Virus record (IMG/VR): IMGVR_UViG_3300037307_000296
Coordinates: 1-33,681 of that record
Direction: 5' to 3' (one strand)
Source of the DNA: a virus
Taxonomy: Duplodnaviria; Caudoviricetes
DNA length: 33,681 nucleotides
Positions 1 through 33,681 of the stretch are shown piece by piece. A program made the position numbers and the translations under genes. Under the pieces are notes generated by a model. The model was not told the DNA's origin, ran no database searches, and worked only from the letters and a program-made list of their open reading frames with translations. Position 1 is the stretch's first letter. Every line of letters begins with the position of its first letter.

Positions 1-125
1 AATGTGCCGCCGCCGCTGACTATCACAGCCTCCGCCGGTACGGCAGACACGACTGGGCACAGCGCCGCTATCCAGCCAGGGGCTGTCACTGTGACCGCCT
101 CCGCCGGCACAGCCGACACCGCTGG
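1..125. repeat. Terminal 125-bp overlap, copy 1 (identical to 33557-33681); circular assembly signature
   Basis: aatgtgccgccgccgctgac...gacaccgctgg is present at both ends; the overlap lies inside a repetitive gene. Confidence 0.9.
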
Positions 126-790: not shown

Positions 791-972
791 CGGCTGGCAA
801 CGCCGTCGCATCACACGCGCTGGTCGGCAACGCGGCCCTGCTTGCTGCGCTCTTTGGCGGCGCGGCCCTATCCCCCGCCCTTGTGGGCACTGTCACACCT
901 GCCGCCGCCGTGCAGGGTGCGGTAGATGTCTCCCACGCCGTGGTGGGCAGCGTTGTATTGGAGGAGATGTAA
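1..972 (+). CDS. 3' part of Thr/Ala/Gly-rich repeat fibre/adhesin-like virion protein (gene starts at 32459 and crosses the circular join, ~689 aa)
   Basis: ~23-aa repeats PGAVTVTASAGTADTAGQ.A; AAT at 33557 is in frame with ATG 32459 and equals codon 1 of this frame. Confidence 0.8.
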   Translation, partial: NVPPPLTITASAGTADTTGHSAAIQPGAVTVTASAGTADTAGQSATVTPGAVTVTASAGTADTAGQAATITNVPPPLTITASAGTADTTGHSAAIQPGAVTVTASAGTADTAGQAATVTPGAVTITASAGSADSAGQSATVTPGAVTVTAINATATTAGLSAGVSSPAPGIQIDTTVGAATSAGHAASVIPGAVSVTASAGTADTAGQSATISVAAAPVTITASAGTADTAGHAAVVQPGAVTVTAAAGTADTAGHAIAITTAAAGNAVASHALVGNAALLAALFGGAALSPALVGTVTPAAAVQGAVDVSHAVVGSVVLEEM

Positions 973-1256
973 TGGCTTACGATGTGGGCGATTTGGTCAG
1001 ACTGACAGTGACTTATACAAACAGTGCTGGCAGCGCGGTCGATCCGAGCACCGTTACGCTTGCCGTCAAGAGCTCCGCTGGCACCACCGCGTATACCTAT
1101 GCGGCGGGTAGTATCACCAAATCGAGTACCGGCGTGTACTACAAAGACGTGATGCTGACAGTGGCGGGCCAGTGGGATTACACCTGGACATCCACCGGCA
1201 CGCCGCAGCAGGTCGCAACCGGCACGCTGTACGCGCTGACGCCCGCGACGGGGTGA
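972..1256 (+). CDS. Small beta-rich (Ig/BppU-like) virion accessory protein
   Basis: GGAGGAG RBS, TAATG coupling, beta-strand pattern with TGVYY motif. Confidence 0.65.
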   Translation: MAYDVGDLVRLTVTYTNSAGSAVDPSTVTLAVKSSAGTTAYTYAAGSITKSSTGVYYKDVMLTVAGQWDYTWTSTGTPQQVATGTLYALTPATG

Positions 1257-1260
1257 TGGA

Positions 1261-1302
1261 GCGGTAGTGCATGAGTCTGTGCAAGCAAGTATGGGGCAGA
1301 CC
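1261..1302 (+). repeat. 42-bp imperfect direct repeat, copy B (37/42 identical to 29506-29547)
   Basis: gcggtagtgcatgagtctgtgcaagcaagtatggggcagacc vs gcggtagtgcatgagtttgtgcagacaagtatggagcacacc. Confidence 0.85.
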
Positions 1303-1304
1303 CA

Positions 1305-2537
1305 ATGACCTGGGATAATCGCATTGTCGGGCAAGGGACAGAGGCCCCGGATCAGCTGCTCGCCAATCCGCGGAACTGGCGGGTGCACCCGAGGCGTCAG
1401 CAGATCGCGCTTGCCTCTGTGTTAGATCAGGTGGGATGGGTGCAGCGTGTGATTGTCAACCAGCGCACCGGGCATGTCGTCGACGGCCATCTCCGCGTTG
1501 CGCTGGCCATCAGCCGCCATGAGCCAGCCGTGCCGGTAGTCTATATTGACGTCAGCGAGGATGAGGAGATGCTCATCCTCGCCAGCCTTGATCCGCTGGC
1601 CCACATGGCCGTCACCGATCAGGAGATGCTGGGGGCGCTCCTGGCCGACCTGCGCAATGAGACATTGGACGGGCTGTTAGGAGCAGTGGCGGCTGAGCAC
1701 AACATCGACATCGAGGGGCTATCTGCTGGCCTGCTACCGCCAAAGATGCCCAACCCGCGCCTCTTGCCGATTGACGTAATCTACACAGCCGGAGGCATAG
1801 ATCGGACAGCCCTACAGGAGCCTTCTCTGGTGCTGACGCACTGTTGCGTAGCTATCAAGGCGGGGTGGAGATATGGGGTGCAATCGTCAGGGTCAGGGGG
1901 TGTCTGCCTGGGGGCTACCTGCATGCGGGGGCATGAGGTGGTGTTCCTGGACAGCGACTACTTTGGGTATGACCACCGCCTCCATTTGGCCGCCGCCCGG
2001 AAATGGCAGCCCAAATATGCCACCGTGCGCGATGTGATGACGCGCTCCCAGTGCGGCGCCGCTGGCATCACTTATTACCCATTGGAGCAGGTGCTCGACT
2101 GGGCGGCAGAATTAAGTGAGTATGCCCGCAACGTAATCGTCATCCCCAAGTATGACTGCTTGGACCATATACCAGATCAGTATGTGCTAGGCTACAGCGA
2201 GCCGACCTCACACGGCGGGACACCGCTTCCTACTGAGGCATTCCGCGGGCGGCGCGTTCACCTATTGGGTGGCAGCTGGAAATCTCAGCTGGCCCATCTT
2301 GCCGTCCTCGGCAATGACGTGGTCAGTCTGGACAATAACTACGTCCACAAGATAGCCAAGTATGGTAAGTGTGTGATGCCAGATGGTACTACTATACGAT
2401 TAAACGATTTAGTGCCGGCAGTGGACAGCTCACTTTATGTCTCATTGGCAATCTCATACGCGAGTATTGCCACAATGGTTAATCGACTCTACGCCGGAGC
2501 GATGGTCAGCGAGCCGGTTCCAACACCCGGCGAATAA
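1305..2537 (+). CDS. ParB/Srx-like N-terminal domain fused to a TGT/DpdA-like (DUF6610-like) TIM-barrel domain
   Basis: N-terminal NPRNWRVHP...GWVQRVIVN...VVDGHLR is a phage ParB-like motif; C-terminal YATVRD, VIVIPK, LGYSEPT, VHLLGGS, VVSLDNN resemble transglycosylase HLLG/S.D motifs; adjacent to yhhQ. Confidence 0.7.
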   Translation: MTWDNRIVGQGTEAPDQLLANPRNWRVHPRRQQIALASVLDQVGWVQRVIVNQRTGHVVDGHLRVALAISRHEPAVPVVYIDVSEDEEMLILASLDPLAHMAVTDQEMLGALLADLRNETLDGLLGAVAAEHNIDIEGLSAGLLPPKMPNPRLLPIDVIYTAGGIDRTALQEPSLVLTHCCVAIKAGWRYGVQSSGSGGVCLGATCMRGHEVVFLDSDYFGYDHRLHLAAARKWQPKYATVRDVMTRSQCGAAGITYYPLEQVLDWAAELSEYARNVIVIPKYDCLDHIPDQYVLGYSEPTSHGGTPLPTEAFRGRRVHLLGGSWKSQLAHLAVLGNDVVSLDNNYVHKIAKYGKCVMPDGTTIRLNDLVPAVDSSLYVSLAISYASIATMVNRLYAGAMVSEPVPTPGE

Positions 2538-2543
2538 AATTGG

Positions 2544-2579
2544 CGGGGTCGCAGTGCTCCCCGGAAAAAACACAAGGAG
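2544..2579 (+). ncRNA. preQ1 class I riboswitch-like aptamer (translational type) overlapping the SD of yhhQ
   Basis: CGGGG-TCGCAGTGCT-CCCCG-GAAAAAACACAAG-GAG: 5-bp P1, UCGCAG loop, A-rich tail ending in ACAAG/SD; directly upstream of a queuosine-precursor transporter. Confidence 0.8.
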
Positions 2580-2585
2580 ATAGTG

Positions 2586-3191
2586 ATGATCAGAGCGATT
2601 GTGGTAGCGGCTGCTTATGTGGCAGCGCAGATGATGGCAGATGTAGCCAGCCTGCGGATTGTGCTGCTATTTGGGCTGTCAATCGACGCTGGCACGTTTG
2701 TGTATCCATTAACCTTCACATTGCGCGATATGGTCCACAAGACCGTCGGGGCCAAGGGGGCACGGGTGCTGATCGTAACTGCGGCGGTGGTTAATGTCAT
2801 GATGGCAGGCTTGTTCTGGCTCACCGCACGTCTGGCGGCCGATCTGGCGGTTGGACCCCAGGCGGAGTTCGGGATCGTTTTGTCGCCAGTCTGGCGCATC
2901 GTCTTTGCCAGTATCGCCGCCGAGGTAATCGCCGAACTGGTGGACACGGAAGCCTATCGACTCTGGGTGGACCGGGTTAGCCGCCGCTATCAGTGGGCAC
3001 GGGTGCTGTCGTCTAATGCAGTGTCAGTCCCGCTAGACAGCCTGCTCTTTGCTTGGGGGGCGTTTGGCGGTATGCTACCGGGGGCGGTCGTGTGGTCGAT
3101 CGTGGCGTCTAATATACTGGTCAAGGGGGCGACCACGTTGATCAGTATGCCGCTGATTTACGCCGTGCCGGATAATAGTTTAGCGATTTGA
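2586..3191 (+). CDS. yhhQ: Queuosine precursor (preQ0/preQ1) transporter, VUT/YhhQ family (alternative start GTG 2583)
   Basis: Multi-TM protein with AGTFVYPLTFTLRD, RIVFAS, RVLSSNAVSVPLDSLLF motifs; AAGGAG SD at 2574-2579. Confidence 0.9.
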   Translation: MIRAIVVAAAYVAAQMMADVASLRIVLLFGLSIDAGTFVYPLTFTLRDMVHKTVGAKGARVLIVTAAVVNVMMAGLFWLTARLAADLAVGPQAEFGIVLSPVWRIVFASIAAEVIAELVDTEAYRLWVDRVSRRYQWARVLSSNAVSVPLDSLLFAWGAFGGMLPGAVVWSIVASNILVKGATTLISMPLIYAVPDNSLAI

Positions 3192-3202
3192 GGGATTAAA
3201 AA

Positions 3203-3607
3203 TTGGCAGGCAAGTTTGGCGAAGATGTTATTGGGCGGTTGGAACAGGCACTCACATTGGGCGCCACCTATGAGATGGCTTGCCGCTATGCAGGTATCAC
3301 ATACCAGACCTATCGCAACTGGATACTCAAGGGGGAGCAGGCCAAATCGGGGGACTTCTGCGACTTTGTCGAGCGCATGGCAGCGGCTGAGGGTCGGGCG
3401 GTGATCGGCTGGCTGGCCAAGATCGAGAGGGCCGCCAACGAGGGGGTGTGGCAGGCGGCGGCGTGGAAACTAGAGCGCCGCTATCCTGAGGCCTACGGAC
3501 GCCAACGGGTTGAGTTGACCGGCGCGGATGGAGATGTGGTCAGAATCTCGATAAGATGGCCGGAGGAGAACCAGGACGGCGAACAAACCAATGGCACGCC
3601 AGATTGA
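3203..3607 (+). CDS. terS: Terminase small subunit (HTH)
   Basis: ACRYAGITYQTYRNW HTH and WQAAAWKLERRYP motif; immediately upstream of terL. Confidence 0.8.
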   Translation: MAGKFGEDVIGRLEQALTLGATYEMACRYAGITYQTYRNWILKGEQAKSGDFCDFVERMAAAEGRAVIGWLAKIERAANEGVWQAAAWKLERRYPEAYGRQRVELTGADGDVVRISIRWPEENQDGEQTNGTPD

Positions 3608-4802
3608 CATTGACCTGCCCAGGCTGCATGCCGGGCAGATCGAAATCGTCAAGCATCCTGCTCGCTTCAAGGTGGTAGCCAACGGGCGGCGCTGGGGCAA
3701 AACGCGCCTGGGGATGTATATCTGCCTCACTGTTGCGCTCACTGGCGGGCGGGCGTGGTGGGTTGCGCCGTCCTATCCGATGAGCACGGTCGGATGGCGC
3801 GGGCTGAAGGGACTGGCCCGCCAGATACCAGGCGCTGAGCTACGGGAGGTTGACCGCATCATCACGTTTGCAGGTGGTGGTACTGTACAGGTGCGCAGCG
3901 CGGATAACCCGGACTCGCTGCGTGGTGAGGGATTGGATTACGTCGTGCTAGACGAGTGTGCCTATATGCAAGAGGATGCGTGGACAAACGCGCTGCGGCC
4001 TGCGCTGTCAGACCGCAAAGGTGGCGCGCTGTTCATCTCCACGCCGCGCGGGCGCAACTGGTTCCACCGGCTATATCAGCGCGGTTTGGGCGACACCGAT
4101 CTCAATTGGGCGGCGTGGTCATATCCTACTGTGGATAATCCCTATATAGATCCGGTAGAAATCGAGCGGGCCCGGCAGGAGTTGCCATCCGACATCTTTG
4201 CCCAGGAGTACCTTGCCGAGTTCGTTGATGACGGCGGGCTGGTGTTCCGCAACGTGACGGCCTGCCTGTGGGAGCCGCCGTCTGAGCCGGAGCGCGGGCG
4301 GCGCTACATGGCGGGGGTAGACTGGGCACAGTCTAGAGACTGGACGGTCATTGTGGTCATGGACGACCTGGGGCGCGTGGTCGCAATTGAGCGTTCCAAC
4401 CAAATTGCATGGGATGTCCAGCGCGCCCGGCTGGCTGGCATTGTGGACCGTTGGGGTGTGGTCCATGTGCTGGCCGAGGCCAACGCGATTGGCGGCCCGA
4501 ACATCGAGCAGCTCCAGGTGGAGGGCTTGCCGGTGGTAGGCTTTATGACCACCAATGAGAGCAAGTCGCGGGTGATCCAGGCGCTGGTGTTGGCCTTTGA
4601 GCGCGGGGGGATTGCGATACCGGAGCACGCGGTGCTGCTGGCCGAACTGATGGCGTTTGAGGCCGGACGGCTGCCGTCCGGGCGCTGGCAGTATGCAGCC
4701 CCGGCCGGGATGCATGACGATACAGTGATAGCGCTGGCTCTGGCGTGGTGGGCACATCACAACATGCCAGAGGTAGCATTTGCAGACAGCCCATTTTATT
4801 AG
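3591..4802 (+). CDS. terL: Terminase large subunit
   Basis: Walker A GRRWGKT, LRGEGLDYVVLDE Walker B, ISTPRG, nuclease motifs GVDWA..D and HDDTVIA. Confidence 0.95.
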   Translation: MARQIDIDLPRLHAGQIEIVKHPARFKVVANGRRWGKTRLGMYICLTVALTGGRAWWVAPSYPMSTVGWRGLKGLARQIPGAELREVDRIITFAGGGTVQVRSADNPDSLRGEGLDYVVLDECAYMQEDAWTNALRPALSDRKGGALFISTPRGRNWFHRLYQRGLGDTDLNWAAWSYPTVDNPYIDPVEIERARQELPSDIFAQEYLAEFVDDGGLVFRNVTACLWEPPSEPERGRRYMAGVDWAQSRDWTVIVVMDDLGRVVAIERSNQIAWDVQRARLAGIVDRWGVVHVLAEANAIGGPNIEQLQVEGLPVVGFMTTNESKSRVIQALVLAFERGGIAIPEHAVLLAELMAFEAGRLPSGRWQYAAPAGMHDDTVIALALAWWAHHNMPEVAFADSPFY

Positions 4803-17601: not shown

Positions 17602-18119
17602 GGACTCTTATTGTTGTGTTGTGCAGCATTATACTGCTGGCGGCGTGCCGGGCGCCCTATGTACCAATCCCGGCGGATATGACGCCTGTTGTCATAACGC
17701 AGGACGCGCCCCCTACCCCGACGCAGATCGCGCCGGAGCCGGAAGTGCCACCTGCCGGGGAGCAGCCGCCGCCCGCGCCGGATGATGTGCCGTCGCCCTG
17801 GCCGGAGCCGGTGGGTTGGGTGTGCAACCCGCTGGAGCGCACGTACTATGTGCCTGACAACAACATGCGGGTGCGGGCCGGGCCGGGCGTGGACCAGCCG
17901 GAGGCGTGGGATACGCTGTTGTACGCCGGGATGATTTTCCCCCAGGTGGACCTGGGGATGGAGCTGCTGCAATGCCTGGATATGCAGGACCGGGGCGAGG
18001 AGTGGTTCTGCCAGTACGCGCTGGCAGAGGCCTCTGCCAGTGCGTTAGAGTGCGTGGCACACATCGCTGTGGTGGACGGGGCACTGCGGGAGTTCCCAGG
18101 GCGGCTGTATGTCCGGTAA
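17598..18119 (+). CDS. Lipoprotein with Pro-rich linker and SH3b-like domain
   Basis: Signal peptide with LLAA-C lipobox; NMRVRAGPG; ATGA overlap, AGGAGG RBS. Confidence 0.65.
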   Translation: MRTLIVVLCSIILLAACRAPYVPIPADMTPVVITQDAPPTPTQIAPEPEVPPAGEQPPPAPDDVPSPWPEPVGWVCNPLERTYYVPDNNMRVRAGPGVDQPEAWDTLLYAGMIFPQVDLGMELLQCLDMQDRGEEWFCQYALAEASASALECVAHIAVVDGALREFPGRLYVR

Positions 18120-19053
18120 CCTGCGTCCCCCCTTCTCGTGGTTCGGCGGAAAGCGGCTGATCGCTGCGGAGGTCTGGCGGCGGTTTGGCCCACACATCTT
18201 CCGCTATGCCGAGCCGTTTGCGGGCGGGCTGGCGGTGGCGCTGGCGGCCCCGCGTGTGCCGTACTACGAGATATACAACGACATCGACGGCTTGCTGGTT
18301 AATGCCTGGCGGGCCATCCAACGCGATCCGCGTGGGGTGTGGCAGGCGGCCGACCGCCCGATGGCCGAGCTCGAATTACAGGCGATCCACGCCCGCATGA
18401 TGGTACGTGCCGAGGGGCTGGCCGCCCGGCTGGCAGCTGATCCGGATTACTACGATGCCGAGATGGGCGGCTGGTGGGTTTGGGGCCAGTGCGCAACAAT
18501 TGGCGACCATTGGGTGCAAGATCGGATGTCCCGCTCAGTGCCGCGTCTGGTGGGTTTTCCCGGCCTCCTCAGCATCCGGGCGTCCGGTAACGGCCCTGCC
18601 TATCTGCGGGCGCTGTCGCGGCGGCTGAGCCGCTCGGTTATCCTGTGTGGTGACTGGATGCGGGCGGTGACACCTATTGTGTTGTTTCGCAGGGCCAGCC
18701 CGACAAATGTCGTTGCCGTGTTCCTGGACCCCCCGTATGCCGCCGCGACGGGGCAACGCTACAAGGTATACGGGAGACACGATGATGGGGAGGTTGCCCA
18801 CAGGGTGCGGGAGTGGGCATTGGAGCATGGGGACGACCCGCGCCTGCGCATCGCGTTGTGCGGCTATAACGAGCACGACGACCTGGCGGCGGCGGGCTGG
18901 CAGCTCCACCGCTGGTCGGCCAATGGGGGATACGGCAATATAGGCTCCAACGGCGATCAGCGGCACCGCGAGGTGGTGTGGTTCTCCCCGCGCTGTGTCC
19001 GCCCTGCGCAGCAGCTAAGCCTATTTGACGGGGTGATCCTTGGACAGCAGTAG
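18109..19053 (+). CDS. DNA adenine methyltransferase (Dam/D12-like)
   Basis: PFSWFGGK, YAEPFAGG, EIYNDID, FLDPPY. Confidence 0.9.
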   Translation: MSGNLRPPFSWFGGKRLIAAEVWRRFGPHIFRYAEPFAGGLAVALAAPRVPYYEIYNDIDGLLVNAWRAIQRDPRGVWQAADRPMAELELQAIHARMMVRAEGLAARLAADPDYYDAEMGGWWVWGQCATIGDHWVQDRMSRSVPRLVGFPGLLSIRASGNGPAYLRALSRRLSRSVILCGDWMRAVTPIVLFRRASPTNVVAVFLDPPYAAATGQRYKVYGRHDDGEVAHRVREWALEHGDDPRLRIALCGYNEHDDLAAAGWQLHRWSANGGYGNIGSNGDQRHREVVWFSPRCVRPAQQLSLFDGVILGQQ

Positions 19054-20546: not shown

Positions 20547-20580
20547 AGCGGCCCGCGCCTGTGGAGGTGTGCGGGCCGCT
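20547..20580. terminator. GC-rich hairpin between convergent genes, probable bidirectional terminator
   Basis: agcggcccgc...gcgggccgct stem; weak U tract. Confidence 0.6.
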
Positions 20581-20603
20581 TGCGTGTAGGGAGTTACTTG
20601 CGC

Positions 20604-21359
20604 CTACGCGCTCCAGGTGGGCGTGAGCACCCCAGAGCGGTCTGTAAACACGCTAAAGCGGGCGCCGGTCAGATTGGTATTGCGCAGGTCCGCGCCGGTC
20701 AGGTCAGCCTTGTGCAGGTGAGCGCCGTAGATGTCCGCGCCGGTCAGGTCGACATTGCGCAGGTCGACATTGCGCAGGTCGACATTGCGCAGGTCGGCAT
20801 AGCACAGGTAAGCGCCGCTCAGATCGGTATTGCGCAGGTCCGCGCCGGTCAGGTCAGCGCGACGCAGGTCCGCGCCGGTCAGATCGGCATAGCTCAGGTC
20901 GGTATAGCACAGGCAAGCGCCGTACAGTCTGGCGTTGCACAGGTAGGCGCCACACAGGTCCGCGCTGCGCAGGTCCGCGCCGGTCAGGTAAGCGCCGCTC
21001 ATGTCTGCGTCCCCGAAGTTAGCATAGCCCGTCAGGGCGCCGCTCAGGTAAGCGTCGGTCAGATCGGTATTGCGCAGGTCCGCGCCGCTCAGGTCCGCAT
21101 AGCGCAGGTCCGCGCCGCTCAGGTCCGCATAGTGCAGGTCCGCGCCGCTCAGGTCCGCATAGCGCAGGTTGGCACAGTGCAGGTTGGCGCTGCTCAGGTC
21201 CGCATAGCGCAGGTTGGCACAGTGCAGGTTGGCGCTGCTCAGGTCCGCATAGTGCAGGTTGGCATTGCGCAGGTCTATGGCCTCGCTTGGGTTAGCATCT
21301 CGCCATGCGTTCCAGGGGGCGACGCCCCTGGTGATCAGCTCGTACTGCTTGTCGTTCAC
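20604..21359 (-). CDS. Pentapeptide repeat protein, paralog 1
   Basis: WNAWRDANP head then (A[DN]LXX)n; purine-rich RBS before GTG. Confidence 0.9.
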   Translation of the reverse strand: MNDKQYELITRGVAPWNAWRDANPSEAIDLRNANLHYADLSSANLHCANLRYADLSSANLHCANLRYADLSGADLHYADLSGADLRYADLSGADLRNTDLTDAYLSGALTGYANFGDADMSGAYLTGADLRSADLCGAYLCNARLYGACLCYTDLSYADLTGADLRRADLTGADLRNTDLSGAYLCYADLRNVDLRNVDLRNVDLTGADIYGAHLHKADLTGADLRNTNLTGARFSVFTDRSGVLTPTWSA

Positions 21360-21400
21360 TATTACCTTCCCTTTCCTTGGCCGCTATGCGGCCTGTATTA

Positions 21401-21429
21401 TCTATATCTCTGGTTATTGGTCCGATCAA
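21401..21429 (-). promoter_or_regulatory. Sigma70-like promoter for paralog 1 (TTGATC-N17-TATAGA)
   Basis: Minus strand reads ttgatc-ggaccaataaccagaga-tataga. Confidence 0.5.
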
Positions 21430-21463
21430 ATTGATCTGATGGCATCAGATCAAAATGATCGGA
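21421..21463. promoter_or_regulatory. 43-bp palindrome with four GATC sites
   Basis: tccgatcaaattgatctgatg-g-catcagatcaaaatgatcgga; 19/21 pairs. Confidence 0.65.
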
Positions 21464-21464
21464 T

Positions 21465-21486
21465 GGGCAGCCCTCCGGGGCTGCCC
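21465..21486 (-). terminator. Hairpin downstream of paralog 2
   Basis: gggcagccc-tccg-gggctgccc, 10 nt after the stop; no clear U tract. Confidence 0.55.
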
Positions 21487-21496
21487 TGGTCTTGTA

Positions 21497-22060
21497 CTAC
21501 GCGCTCCAGGTGGGCTCCAGCGCCCCGGAGCGGTCTGCAAACCCGCTAAAGCGGGCACCGGTCAGAGCAGCATAGTCCAAAGCGGCGCCGCGCAGGTGAG
21601 CGCCGGTCATGTTGGCGCCACGCAGGTTAGCCTTGCGCAGATCGGCGCCGCGCAGGTCCGCGCGACGCAGGTCGGTGCCGGCCAAGTCGGCGCCGGACAG
21701 GTCGACCATACGCAGGTCCGCGTCGCGCAGATCGGCGCCGCGCAGGCCCGCGCCGCGCAGGTTGGCACCGGCCAGATGAGCGCGGACCAGGTCCGCCCTG
21801 CGCAGGTCCGCAATGTGCAAGTCCGCGTCGACCAGATCGGCGCCACACAGGTCCGCGCTGCGCAGGTCCGCGCCAGCCAGGTCCGCGCCGGCCAGGGAAG
21901 CGCCGGTCAGGTCCGCCCTGCGCAGGTCCGCGCGACGCAGGTCCGCGCCGGCCAGGTAAGCACCGCCCAGGTCTATGCTCTCGCTTGGGTTAGCATCTCG
22001 CCACGCGTTCCAGGTGGCGACTCCCTTGGTGATCAGCTCGTACTGCTTGTTCGTGTCCAT
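21497..22060 (-). CDS. Pentapeptide repeat protein, paralog 2
   Basis: Same N- and C-terminal caps as paralog 1; AGGAGG RBS. Confidence 0.9.
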   Translation of the reverse strand: MDTNKQYELITKGVATWNAWRDANPSESIDLGGAYLAGADLRRADLRRADLTGASLAGADLAGADLRSADLCGADLVDADLHIADLRRADLVRAHLAGANLRGAGLRGADLRDADLRMVDLSGADLAGTDLRRADLRGADLRKANLRGANMTGAHLRGAALDYAALTGARFSGFADRSGALEPTWSA

Positions 22061-22202
22061 TGTGTCCTCCTATGTATGTGCTATTGATTACATCTTACCA
22101 CAGGTCGCTGTAGTTGTATATAGTACTATGGTACTATATACAAATATAGTGTTATCATGTATGATCAAGGTAAGGTAACACACACAAGGAGCGGAGTAAA
22201 CG
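22061..22202. promoter_or_regulatory. AT-rich divergent control region with a 13-4-13 inverted repeat
   Basis: ttgtatatagtac-tatg-gtactatatacaa (22114-22143); leftward TGGTAAGAT (22092-22100) and rightward TGTTATCAT extended -10-like boxes. Confidence 0.7.
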
Positions 22203-29132: not shown

Positions 29133-29553
29133 CACAGGTCTGGTGATCTGGTCTGGCTCCGAGCCTATCTCGTGGTGGGTCCTGGGCGGGCGCTCTGCCG
29201 AGGAGATGGCAGGGCACATCGTGACGCAGATCATACGCCTTGCGCCCGATTGGATCGCGATCGAGGGCGCGTATCTGGGCGAAAACCCAAACACCTATGG
29301 GCAACTGATGATGCTGATTGGCGCTACAGTTGGCACGGCGCGGCATCTGGGTATCCCGTGCCGCGTGATCTCAGCAGCCGAGATCAGCGACCGGCTTAAT
29401 CTGCCGGTCAAAGGCCGCAAGGCCGCCAATATGCGACTGGCGGAGATGGTACGCCCGGCATGGCGTCTCACGCAGGACACTGCTGATGCTCTTGCTGTGG
29501 GGCTGGCGGTAGTGCATGAGTTTGTGCAGACAAGTATGGAGCACACCGGGTGA
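29098..29553 (+). CDS. ruvC: RuvC-like Holliday junction resolvase
   Basis: ISIDP..TG, IAIE, DTADALAVG acidic tetrad. Confidence 0.85.
   Translation: MKGISIDPNTHDTGLVIWSGSEPISWWVLGGRSAEEMAGHIVTQIIRLAPDWIAIEGAYLGENPNTYGQLMMLIGATVGTARHLGIPCRVISAAEISDRLNLPVKGRKAANMRLAEMVRPAWRLTQDTADALAVGLAVVHEFVQTSMEHTG
29506..29547 (+). repeat. 42-bp imperfect direct repeat, copy A (3' end of ruvC)
   Basis: Matches 1261-1302 with 5 mismatches. Confidence 0.85.
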
Positions 29554-29606
29554 CCCGGGATGCTGCCGTTTGACCGCGCAACTGATGTTGCTGGGGAGTC
29601 GATGAG

Positions 29607-32459: not shown

Positions 32460-33681
32460 TGACCAGCACAGGCCAGGTCTATCCGGGGTCAGTGACTACA
32501 GCCTCGGAGTCGCCCTGGTCGGATAACGACTGGTCTACGCCGTCTGGCGTCACAGCCGACGGTGGTGACACCGCCAATATCACAAGCCCTACTTATGATA
32601 CCGGGGACCAGAGCTATGTGCTCAAGGCATACAACTTTGCCTTGAGCAGCATCCCGGACGGCGCGACAATTAACACGGTCACCTGTCGCGTCAATGCATA
32701 TTACGCCAGCGGTGAGGGCAGCGGGTCAGTTGATCTGATGCAGCTGCTGGACACCTCCCGCGCAACGGGCGGCACAAATTTGTGCAGCACGCCTGTTGCC
32801 CTCACCACGACGACCAGCACCGTGATCACCAAGAGCGGCACCCCGACAGACTGGGGCCGTGCCCTGACCGCGGCGTGGGTCAAGGATGCCGATTTTGGCG
32901 TGGCGTTGGGCATCATCGCCACGGCAAATAACGCAGACGTGCACATCGATTATGTCACGTTGGAGATCGACTACACCGCCGCCGTGACCGTGACTGCCAG
33001 CGCCGGCACAGCCGACAGCGCTGGACAGGCCGCCAGTATCACGCCCGGCGCCGTGACCGTGACTGCCAGTGCCGGCACAGCCGACACGACCGGACAGGCC
33101 GCCACCATTACTACTGTGGCCCCCGGCGTCACGGTCACCGCCAGTGCTGGCACAGCCGACACGACCGGACAGGCCGCCACAATAACGCCCGGCGCGGTCA
33201 CGGTCACCGCCAGTGCAGGGGCGGCGGATACAGCGGGGCTTGGCGCGACAGTCAGTGCGGCTGCTGCGGTCGACCGCAACCCAGGCACAATCGATGTCTG
33301 GCTTACGGATCGCATCCCGCTTGGCGACCCTGCTCCACTGGCGGCCAGCACCGGAGATTTGGATGTCTGGCTGACCGACCGGCTCCCGCTGACCGTCTAT
33401 GCAGACGGTGGAGAGCCAAGCGGCGACCAGACCGTTACCGCCGCAGCGGGCTCAGCAGACACGGCGGGCCACGCCGCCAGTATCACACCGGGCGCCGTCA
33501 CGGTCACCGCCAGTGCCGGCACAGCCGACAGCGCCGGACAGTCTGCCACCATTACCAATGTGCCGCCGCCGCTGACTATCACAGCCTCCGCCGGTACGGC
33601 AGACACGACTGGGCACAGCGCCGCTATCCAGCCAGGGGCTGTCACTGTGACCGCCTCCGCCGGCACAGCCGACACCGCTGG
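32459..33681 (+). CDS. 5' part of the repeat fibre/adhesin-like protein (not in the ORF track; continues at 1-972)
   Basis: TGATG coupling; open frame MTSTGQVYPG...HIDYVTLEIDYT followed by the 23-aa repeats, no stop to the window end. Confidence 0.8.
   Translation, partial: MTSTGQVYPGSVTTASESPWSDNDWSTPSGVTADGGDTANITSPTYDTGDQSYVLKAYNFALSSIPDGATINTVTCRVNAYYASGEGSGSVDLMQLLDTSRATGGTNLCSTPVALTTTTSTVITKSGTPTDWGRALTAAWVKDADFGVALGIIATANNADVHIDYVTLEIDYTAAVTVTASAGTADSAGQAASITPGAVTVTASAGTADTTGQAATITTVAPGVTVTASAGTADTTGQAATITPGAVTVTASAGAADTAGLGATVSAAAAVDRNPGTIDVWLTDRIPLGDPAPLAASTGDLDVWLTDRLPLTVYADGGEPSGDQTVTAAAGSADTAGHAASITPGAVTVTASAGTADSAGQSATITNVPPPLTITASAGTADTTGHSAAIQPGAVTVTASAGTADTA
33557..33681. repeat. 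Terminal 125-bp overlap, copy 2
   Basis: Identical to 1-125. Confidence 0.9.

Follow-up and report, generated by a model that had tools for sequence, protein, structure and literature searches.

Can a phage-borne preQ1 riboswitch in which U replaces the ligand-specifying C be taken as a sensor of another ligand? This question is raised by the leader of a transporter gene in IMGVR_UViG_3300037307_000296, a record of 33,681 nt that was analysed at its full length (hereafter the window) and that represents a tailed phage, with terminase, portal, scaffold, capsid, DnaB and Rad52-like genes. The original prediction, made from the sequence alone, had singled out a class I preQ1 (preQ1-I) element at 2544-2579 with U at specificity position 15, and had proposed a different ligand for it. 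The answer reached here is another one: the locus presents two riboswitch aptamers of a known class in a tandem arrangement that is well supported, and the second pocket of the pair is damaged or rewired in this phage.

Gene context and the flagged element

The features on which the argument depends are the following.

1305-2537, + strand: gene for a fusion of a ParB-like N-domain with DUF6610 (DpdA4, a predicted DNA 7-deazaguanine transglycosylase); PF20314 E 1e-33, PHROG ParB-like
2513-2543, + strand: aptamer 1, intact class I preQ1 type; P1 2513-2517/2527-2531, U6 at 2518, A2525 followed by the specificity base C2526
2532-2539, + strand: L3 of aptamer 1, A-rich and containing the dpdA4 stop; the four-pair P2 is 2520-2523/2540-2543
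2540-2548, + strand: junction of 9 bases, in which the 3' strand of aptamer 1 P2 is followed immediately by the 5' strand of aptamer 2 P1
2544-2579, + strand: aptamer 2; P1 2544-2548/2559-2563, U6 at 2549, G11 at 2554, C14 at 2557, U15 at 2558
2564-2572, + strand: L3 of aptamer 2; C28 at 2571, A29 at 2572, with C30 at 2573
2557-2560, + strand: CUCC, predicted anti-Shine-Dalgarno (anti-SD), complementary to the SD core GGAG and formed by the changes at positions 14 and 15
2575-2579, + strand: SD of yhhQ (AGGAG), 6 bases before ATG 2586
2586-3191, + strand: yhhQ, Vut_1 queuosine-precursor transporter; PF02592 E 2e-33, TIGR00697 82.3 bits against a cut-off of 50.95
3203-4802, + strand: genes for the small and large terminase subunits, directly downstream of yhhQ; PHROG 4102, Terminase_6N/6C

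The protein encoded at 1305-2537 is assigned to DpdA4 on three grounds: its DUF6610 domain, its similarity to HVTV-1 gene 69 (tblastn E 1e-12) and its TGT-like fold, the AlphaFold model (pLDDT 89.8) having TGT and ParB as its top Foldseek matches, with weak E-values (1e-4 and above). DUF6610 was named DpdA4 after HVTV-1 gene 69 in bioRxiv 2023.04.13.536721, a source according to which heterologous activity tests of the family failed and activity is not shown even for its founding members. The last codons and the stop of dpdA4 are the coding sequence of aptamer 1. The transporter gene has an alternative start, GTG 2583, the recorded protein comprising 201 aa from ATG 2586; its dN/dS of about 0.05-0.07 against the three nearest relatives indicates purifying selection, with synonymous sites near saturation (dS about 1.9). 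Phage-encoded YhhQ was already known (PMC6884629). Since most of the closest YhhQ relatives from named genome records, among the matches listed, belong to Chloroflexota, the host is presumably bacterial. Searches for the QueC, QueF, FolE and PTPS/QueD families returned 0 matches in the record, the estimated completeness of which (51%) leaves their absence not established. The terminal 125 bases of the window (1-125 and 33557-33681) are identical and lie within an Ala/Thr-rich repetitive gene, and the record, with its completeness estimate of 51%, may be a falsely closed fragment. Elsewhere in the window, a fragment match to a Dam-like adenine methyltransferase and two decapeptide-repeat proteins were seen at 18109-19053 and 20580-22087, respectively.

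Promoter- or terminator-like sites above shuffle level were not found in 900-3300, nor was a terminator-like site found between or beside the two aptamers in the window. A 56-base direct repeat, 84% identical, is shared by 1261-1316, just before dpdA4, and 29506-29561, and is possibly a common promoter or operator. Inspection by eye revealed no slippery heptamer before aptamer 1, and a frameshifting reading was dropped.

The 36 bases at 2544-2579 read as the original prediction had quoted them, with T at 2558, and their description as a phage-borne preQ1-I-type leader located 3' of a TGT-like gene and 5' of yhhQ is supported. That prediction puts their identity to the 33-nt T. tengcongensis (Tte) aptamer at 24/33. 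In the most stable register the U falls on the specificity position; this register is that of the minimum free energy (MFE) stem 2544-2548/2559-2563, a perfect 5-bp helix which taken alone is not above chance (z -1.04). This P1 is closed by G5-C16 and followed by U6, as is typical of preQ1-I, and G2554-C2573 and C2552-G2576 are complementary, which provides P2 potential with the start of the SD (aptamer positions follow the Tte numbering of PMC11625349). What is lacking is the C specificity base, as AC or UC, before the 3' strand of P1, since CU is found there in the stable register. In addition to U15, the element departs from the class by C at position 14 and C at position 28. The A-rich L3 of preQ1-I is described as ending in three adenines (A27, A28 and A29) of a quintuple-base motif (PMC11625349); here A27 and A29 are kept, while position 28 is C, as also in locus L404, and is G in L179 and L193.

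Recognition by the Rfam PreQ1 model (RF00522), a check put forward with the prediction, did not reach the model's threshold: 2539-2581 is the sole match in 2300-2800 (20.9 bits, E 0.07) and falls below the gathering score of 39, and no Rfam family reaches its gathering score anywhere in the window. Aptamer 1 has no RF00522 match. Relatives with the canonical C are likewise sub-gathering, at 24.5-32.9 bits in 4/10 loci and with no match in 6/10, so that the tandems scanned fall under the Rfam threshold. A model built from eight homologous leaders, with the window left out, matches 2511-2582 at 49.5 bits (E about 7e-13), the next match scoring 10.2 bits; the significance of the leader accordingly derives from this context and not from the aptamer 2 stem alone.

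A tandem of abutting aptamers

Directly upstream of the flagged element, and over the dpdA4 stop codon, lies a second aptamer that the original prediction had missed. Aptamer 1 has a G5-C floor, U6, AC, an A-rich L3 and a Watson-Crick P2, i.e., the full set of preQ1-I characteristics. A structural descriptor for it, which was written after examples had been seen, yields a single match on both window strands, against 0.02 expected per shuffled strand, and 28 matches in 2.98 Mb of fetched loci, every one of them at this leader position.

The tandem is present in 10 distinct phage or metagenome loci (the window and nine others). The junction measures 9 bases in all ten, and the four P2 pairs of aptamer 1 are Watson-Crick in all ten, across two different dpdA4 reading frames. 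An in-frame dpdA4 stop lies in the L3 of aptamer 1 in 10/10 of these tandems, the upstream frame being less certain in L177 and L079. Over eight homologues, 96.4% of the cells in aptamer 1 P2 pair and three pairs change on both sides; the covariation score is reached by 0/500 shuffles, a test that relatedness can inflate, and slid controls pair at 29-46%. In the window, both aptamer 1 P2 and aptamer 2 P1 show a two-sided change that is specific to this lineage. Covariation thus shows both aptamer folds.

The same layout occurs in bacterial chromosomes, where the parser presupposes the 9-base junction. While the first tandem model returned two chromosomal cases among 151 genomes, the rebuilt model (R2) detected the tandem in 38/151 genomes of one Chloroflexota order and 41/151 of one of its families; these are overlapping samples, and each tally counts an unpublished genome (G567) left out of the loci examined. 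Elsewhere, R2 found it in 1/28 genomes of the order of G001 and in 1/151 of a phylum sample, and the phage-type tandem pattern matched 1/401 genomes of the phylum sample, this being the known contig. Examination of 46 genome loci showed the tandem in 44 (39 distinct leaders, all from the one order) and aptamer 2 alone in two. With the ten phage or metagenome loci this makes 49 distinct tandems in which two aptamers, joined by a conserved junction, precede one expression platform, as in a dual-aptamer riboswitch. The chromosomal P2 of aptamer 1 shows further compensatory pairs and survives loop 1 insertions of up to about 20 bases and L3 lengths of up to 126. Many leaders (L413-L416 and L419-L429) have an aptamer 1 whose L3 is interrupted by an insert of 26-126 bases, in several cases a hairpin or a short repeat, P2 being preserved. 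A -10-like box stands 7-14 bases before P1 in 19/21 parsed chromosomal cases, so that the chromosomal pair likely stands at the very start of its mRNA, where coding imposes no constraint.

The genes located 3' of the tandem are yhhQ, QueT (L193) and queC (L412). The leader therefore precedes queuosine synthesis or salvage genes, as preQ1-I aptamers do, and these genes indicate preQ1 or preQ0 as the ligand. QueT replaces yhhQ behind dpdA4 at L193:4163-4645 and L187:2539-3048, the tandem being kept in the former and a single aptamer in the latter.

The first pocket is AC in 39/39 chromosomal tandems, and the second has C in 36/39. In the three exceptions the second pocket has U (L421) or A (L412) or belongs to a broken aptamer (L430), the first aptamer being intact every time. 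Of these, L421:1458-1572 (genome G712) is a second natural C15U, which keeps A14 and an intact yhhQ downstream and whose aptamer 1 has hairpin insertions in two loops; L412 near 1500-1590 (G618) has its A at the pocket 2 specificity base, before queC and a Vut_1 gene; and in L430 near 200-290 (G610) the stem of aptamer 2 is broken. Such single-base exceptions in draft genomes could be errors. With the window included, pocket 2 is lost four times and pocket 1 not once in 49 tandems (Fisher p 0.12, not significant), a comparison to be read with the tandem definition in mind, under which aptamer 1 has to be recognisable. In L014, L431 and L432 it is aptamer 1 that has been lost or scrambled. From these patterns, either aptamer seems dispensable.

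Further variation was observed around this family. In L014 near 1500-1525, the interior of the aptamer 1 hairpin is inverted relative to L017 and L095, with aptamer 2 intact, either by natural inversion or as an assembly artefact. L040 near 931-965 may hold a decayed aptamer 1, the 9-base junction being kept before an intact aptamer 2. A short variant with P1 and AC, almost no A-rich L3 and the SD close behind the stem precedes phage yhhQ genes at L175:669, L176:1709 and L072:2034. Pattern scans of IMG/VR added little: a first loop-plus-tail pattern gave eight loci with no clear aptamer (L010 is possible); a looser aptamer 2 pattern gave 17 loci, and of the 13 that were not known tandems only L275 (identical to L002) lies near yhhQ; and two aptamer 1 patterns gave no new tandem, with six loci (all known) and 29 loci (six known, 23 unrelated). 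An apo-state pairing of the junction with loop 1 of aptamer 2, considered as a shared feature, was rejected by eye, as it is not common to all members.

The U in the second pocket

The original prediction held that U15 may read a 2,6-diaminopurine- or adenine-like face and that transporter and enzyme use such a non-canonical base, in which case U15 might track with the enzyme family. Homologues were drawn from the best 80 of 542 metagenome rows, the best 80 of 371 genome rows and 17 viral rows (16 loci) for YhhQ, and from the best 80 of 105 viral loci for DpdA4. The 170 distinct regions before yhhQ homologues (two after dpdA4) contain 28 distinct SD-proximal aptamers, identified with the specificity base not presupposed: 25 have AC, one CC, one UC and one, the window, CU. 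No tracking was found, as 27/27 other phage-type aptamers keep C, including those of L014, L017 and L095 (all AC), with which the window yhhQ groups (96/93 support, the bootstrap being not fully settled). A U15 clade is not seen either: L421 supplies a second natural U15, yet the two cases are scattered among 27 + 39 relatives and both stand before ordinary yhhQ genes, unlike an altered-specificity ('snuggler') class. A U15-specific scan of IMG/VR returned 68 loci, five with a stem, each of which lies within a long open frame and away from yhhQ and dpdA4.

Of the two proteins, the enzyme points in the same direction and the transporter in the opposite one. Window DpdA4 differs at 1/77 columns that 59 relatives conserve (V263 in place of I) and has the majority residue at 30/31 inspected conserved positions (22 rows), the other being a variable aliphatic site. 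Window YhhQ has more departures than its relatives, which speaks for another ligand: it has six at conserved columns, whereas 52 relatives have a median of 1.5 and at most 4. Four of the six are conservative hydrophobic swaps. Aptamer 2 also keeps U6, A29, G5-C16 and G11/C30, and an engineered C15U is reported to shift affinity to 2,6-diaminopurine-faced ligands (PMC12122380); these ligands are, however, artificial ones (PMC12122380), and HVTV-1, the sole DpdA4 virus assayed, carries mainly dPreQ1 in its DNA (PMC6884629). With no enzyme tracking, a single changed column in DpdA4 and an aptamer with the canonical C directly upstream, the proposal of another ligand is not upheld, and we consider it very improbable.

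A second possibility, also raised with the original prediction, is that P1 slips by one base, which would make C2559 the specificity base after U2558, at the price of a G-G mismatch, and leave an ordinary, weaker OFF switch. The slip restores the UC motif, by which type I aptamers are defined when it precedes the 3' strand of P1 (PMC11625349); UC is likewise present in 3/39 chromosomal second pockets and in L211, the loop lengths of the slipped form (11 and 8) occur in homologs, and the aptamer 1 of L177 is mismatched at the very P1 pair that mismatches in slipped aptamer 2. The slipped hairpin is less stable by 5.2, 6.1, 5.1 and 8.5 kcal/mol in four parameter sets, however, the slip breaks a pair that is G-C in 11/11 aligned second aptamers, and the other natural U15 case, L421, cannot slip. 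We regard the slipped register as unlikely.

Still less probable, in our view, is that the U is an assembly error or that regulation by the leader as a whole has been lost in this phage. Site 2558 is covered by one sample only: a contig of run X1 (depth 10.5) shows no difference over 1200-3700, which speaks against an error, but X1 is possibly the source of the window itself, and none of the listed pieces of run X2 spans the site. No RNA run is listed among those containing the sequence. Decay would fit the three pocket-adjacent departures and the position of aptamer 1 within translated sequence; the lineage-specific two-sided changes in aptamer 1 P2 and aptamer 2 P1 argue against it, though at a dS of about 1.9.

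The best explanation, to which we give about an even chance, is that aptamer 2 is the second member of a class I preQ1 tandem in which a sporadic U likely weakens pocket 2, while aptamer 1 likely still senses preQ1. Its observed basis consists of the covarying folds, the fixed junction, the gene contexts and the C at the first pocket. In the family as a whole, preQ1 would bind both pockets, and aptamer 1 P2 may stack coaxially on aptamer 2 P1, an arrangement which, like any cooperativity between the aptamers, is suggested by the spacing only; aptamer 2 would then bury the start of the SD and turn translation of the transporter OFF when preQ1 is plentiful. In this phage, YhhQ would import preQ0 or preQ1 and DpdA4 would insert the base into phage DNA, and the damage to positions 14, 15 and 28 of pocket 2 would make repression weak or leaky and reliant on aptamer 1. 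For the type III aptamer of E. coli, C15U is reported to cost 64,000-fold in preQ1 affinity and to leave 1.2-fold repression (PMC10622847), and A14 of Tte is described as participating in the ceiling of the pocket (PMC10622847). The Tte C15U variant is reported to prefer synthetic diaminopurine-faced ligands, yet an E. coli reporter still answered preQ1 (PMC12122380; PMC8222354), so that pocket 2 of the window may work; weak preQ1 binding in this pocket is predicted in either register.

Several observations count against this tandem switch with a weakened second pocket. Aptamer 1 ends 32 bases from the SD, and a type I aptamer is described as acting only up to a distance of about 10 bases (PMC11625349). 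Ribosomes finishing dpdA4 would melt aptamer 1. That the excess of pocket 2 losses is not significant (p 0.12) and that aptamer 1 too is lost in places (L014, L431 and L432) are further counterpoints, and folding models predict the SD to open, not to close, once aptamer 1 folds.

This last behaviour would fit a switch of inverted sense. Without ligand, the CUCC at 2557-2560 would pair with the SD; an aptamer 1 locked by preQ1 would let aptamer 2 P1 form, thereby freeing the SD and turning yhhQ ON. Across 16 settings (boundary and temperature combinations per energy set), the SD becomes more accessible by over 0.2 upon locking of aptamer 1 in 14, 15 and 14 settings with the Turner 2004, Andronescu 2007 and Turner 1999 parameters, respectively, the means rising from 0.09 to 0.69, 0.29 to 0.81 and 0.09 to 0.67; under the Langdon 2018 set, the SD is open whether aptamer 1 is locked or not (0/16). 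Departures 14 and 15 both build the anti-SD, and when 2557-2558 are barred from pairing the SD opens, from 0.06 to 0.71 (one energy set). Eight phage-type tandems show the opening in at most 3/16 settings, and while the mean shift of the window is 0.34-0.42, 0/19 chromosomal tandems attain 0.2. The inverted switch is proposed for a single sequence, with no covariation, and two other damaged cases, L421 and L412, show no flip. When the stretch under a terminating ribosome is blocked, the SD stays closed (0.05, one energy set). Every class I example in the tabulation of PMC11625349 is a repressing one. Because the models omit pseudoknots and the two folds lie within about 0-4 kcal/mol of each other, the inverted switch is considered possible but doubtful. 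It is only tentatively suggested, from these models, that the phage may have rewired the tandem into a preQ1-activated switch in which aptamer 2 would be an anti-SD platform driven by the stop-codon aptamer 1. Were this so, the transporter would be made only when the DNA-modification base is available.

Relation to known systems

Aptamer 2 resembles preQ1-I type II as represented by T. tengcongensis (RF00522; PMC11625349) in its 5-bp P1, G5-C16 floor, U6 and A29, in its possible G11-C30 and C9-G33 pairs, in an SD that starts in the 3' tail and in the transporter gene downstream; it differs in having C14-U15 in place of A14-C15, in C28, in the second aptamer upstream and in its phage location. 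Aptamer 1 is closer to type III, i.e., the E. coli yhhQ leader (PMC10622847), and to B. subtilis type II, with UU after P1, AC, a short loop and a fully Watson-Crick P2. Unlike in these, the P2 partner of aptamer 1 is the junction to aptamer 2 and not the SD or a terminator arm, and the phage aptamer 1 overlaps a stop codon. Two like aptamers before one expression platform are also a property of the glycine and guanidine-II dual-aptamer riboswitches (Table 1 of PMC9481103), and one pocket of the glycine riboswitch is reported to be dispensable (PMC11625349); here, in contrast, two H-type pseudoknots abut without a linker.

Table 3 of that 2022 tandem-riboswitch survey (PMC9481103) places preQ1-I with the classes for which no tandem had been found, and riboswitches are described as rare in phages (PMC5473149). 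Tandem or phage preQ1 cases were not encountered in the literature searched, including PMC2258182 and PMC3766115. The smallest well-studied riboswitch is here represented by a linker-less pair of pseudoknots in 49 distinct sequences. At about 70 bases, the tandem is small enough for direct ITC, probing and structural work on the cooperativity of stacked pseudoknots, while the natural pocket losses (the window phage, L421, L412 and L430) and the single-aptamer forms (L431 and L432) offer comparisons for the origin, decay and change of logic of dual aptamers.

On the protein side, the window enzyme shares the TGT-like DUF6610 domain with HVTV-1 DpdA4, and the record resembles those of DpdA-only salvage phages (bioRxiv 2023.04.13.536721; PMC6884629), having yhhQ while precursor-synthesis genes were undetected in it. 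Unlike HVTV-1 and the DpdA-only phages, it has a ParB-fused DpdA4, a presumed bacterial host and a riboswitch-led transporter gene, and the leader would link a metabolite-sensing RNA to a predicted salvage route for DNA modification in DpdA4 phages. Gene 1 of the Mycobacterium phages Rinkes, Funsized and Knocker, annotated as ParB-like only, matches 80% of the ParB-DUF6610 protein at 33% identity; as these phages are in culture, they would allow an assay of DpdA4 activity.
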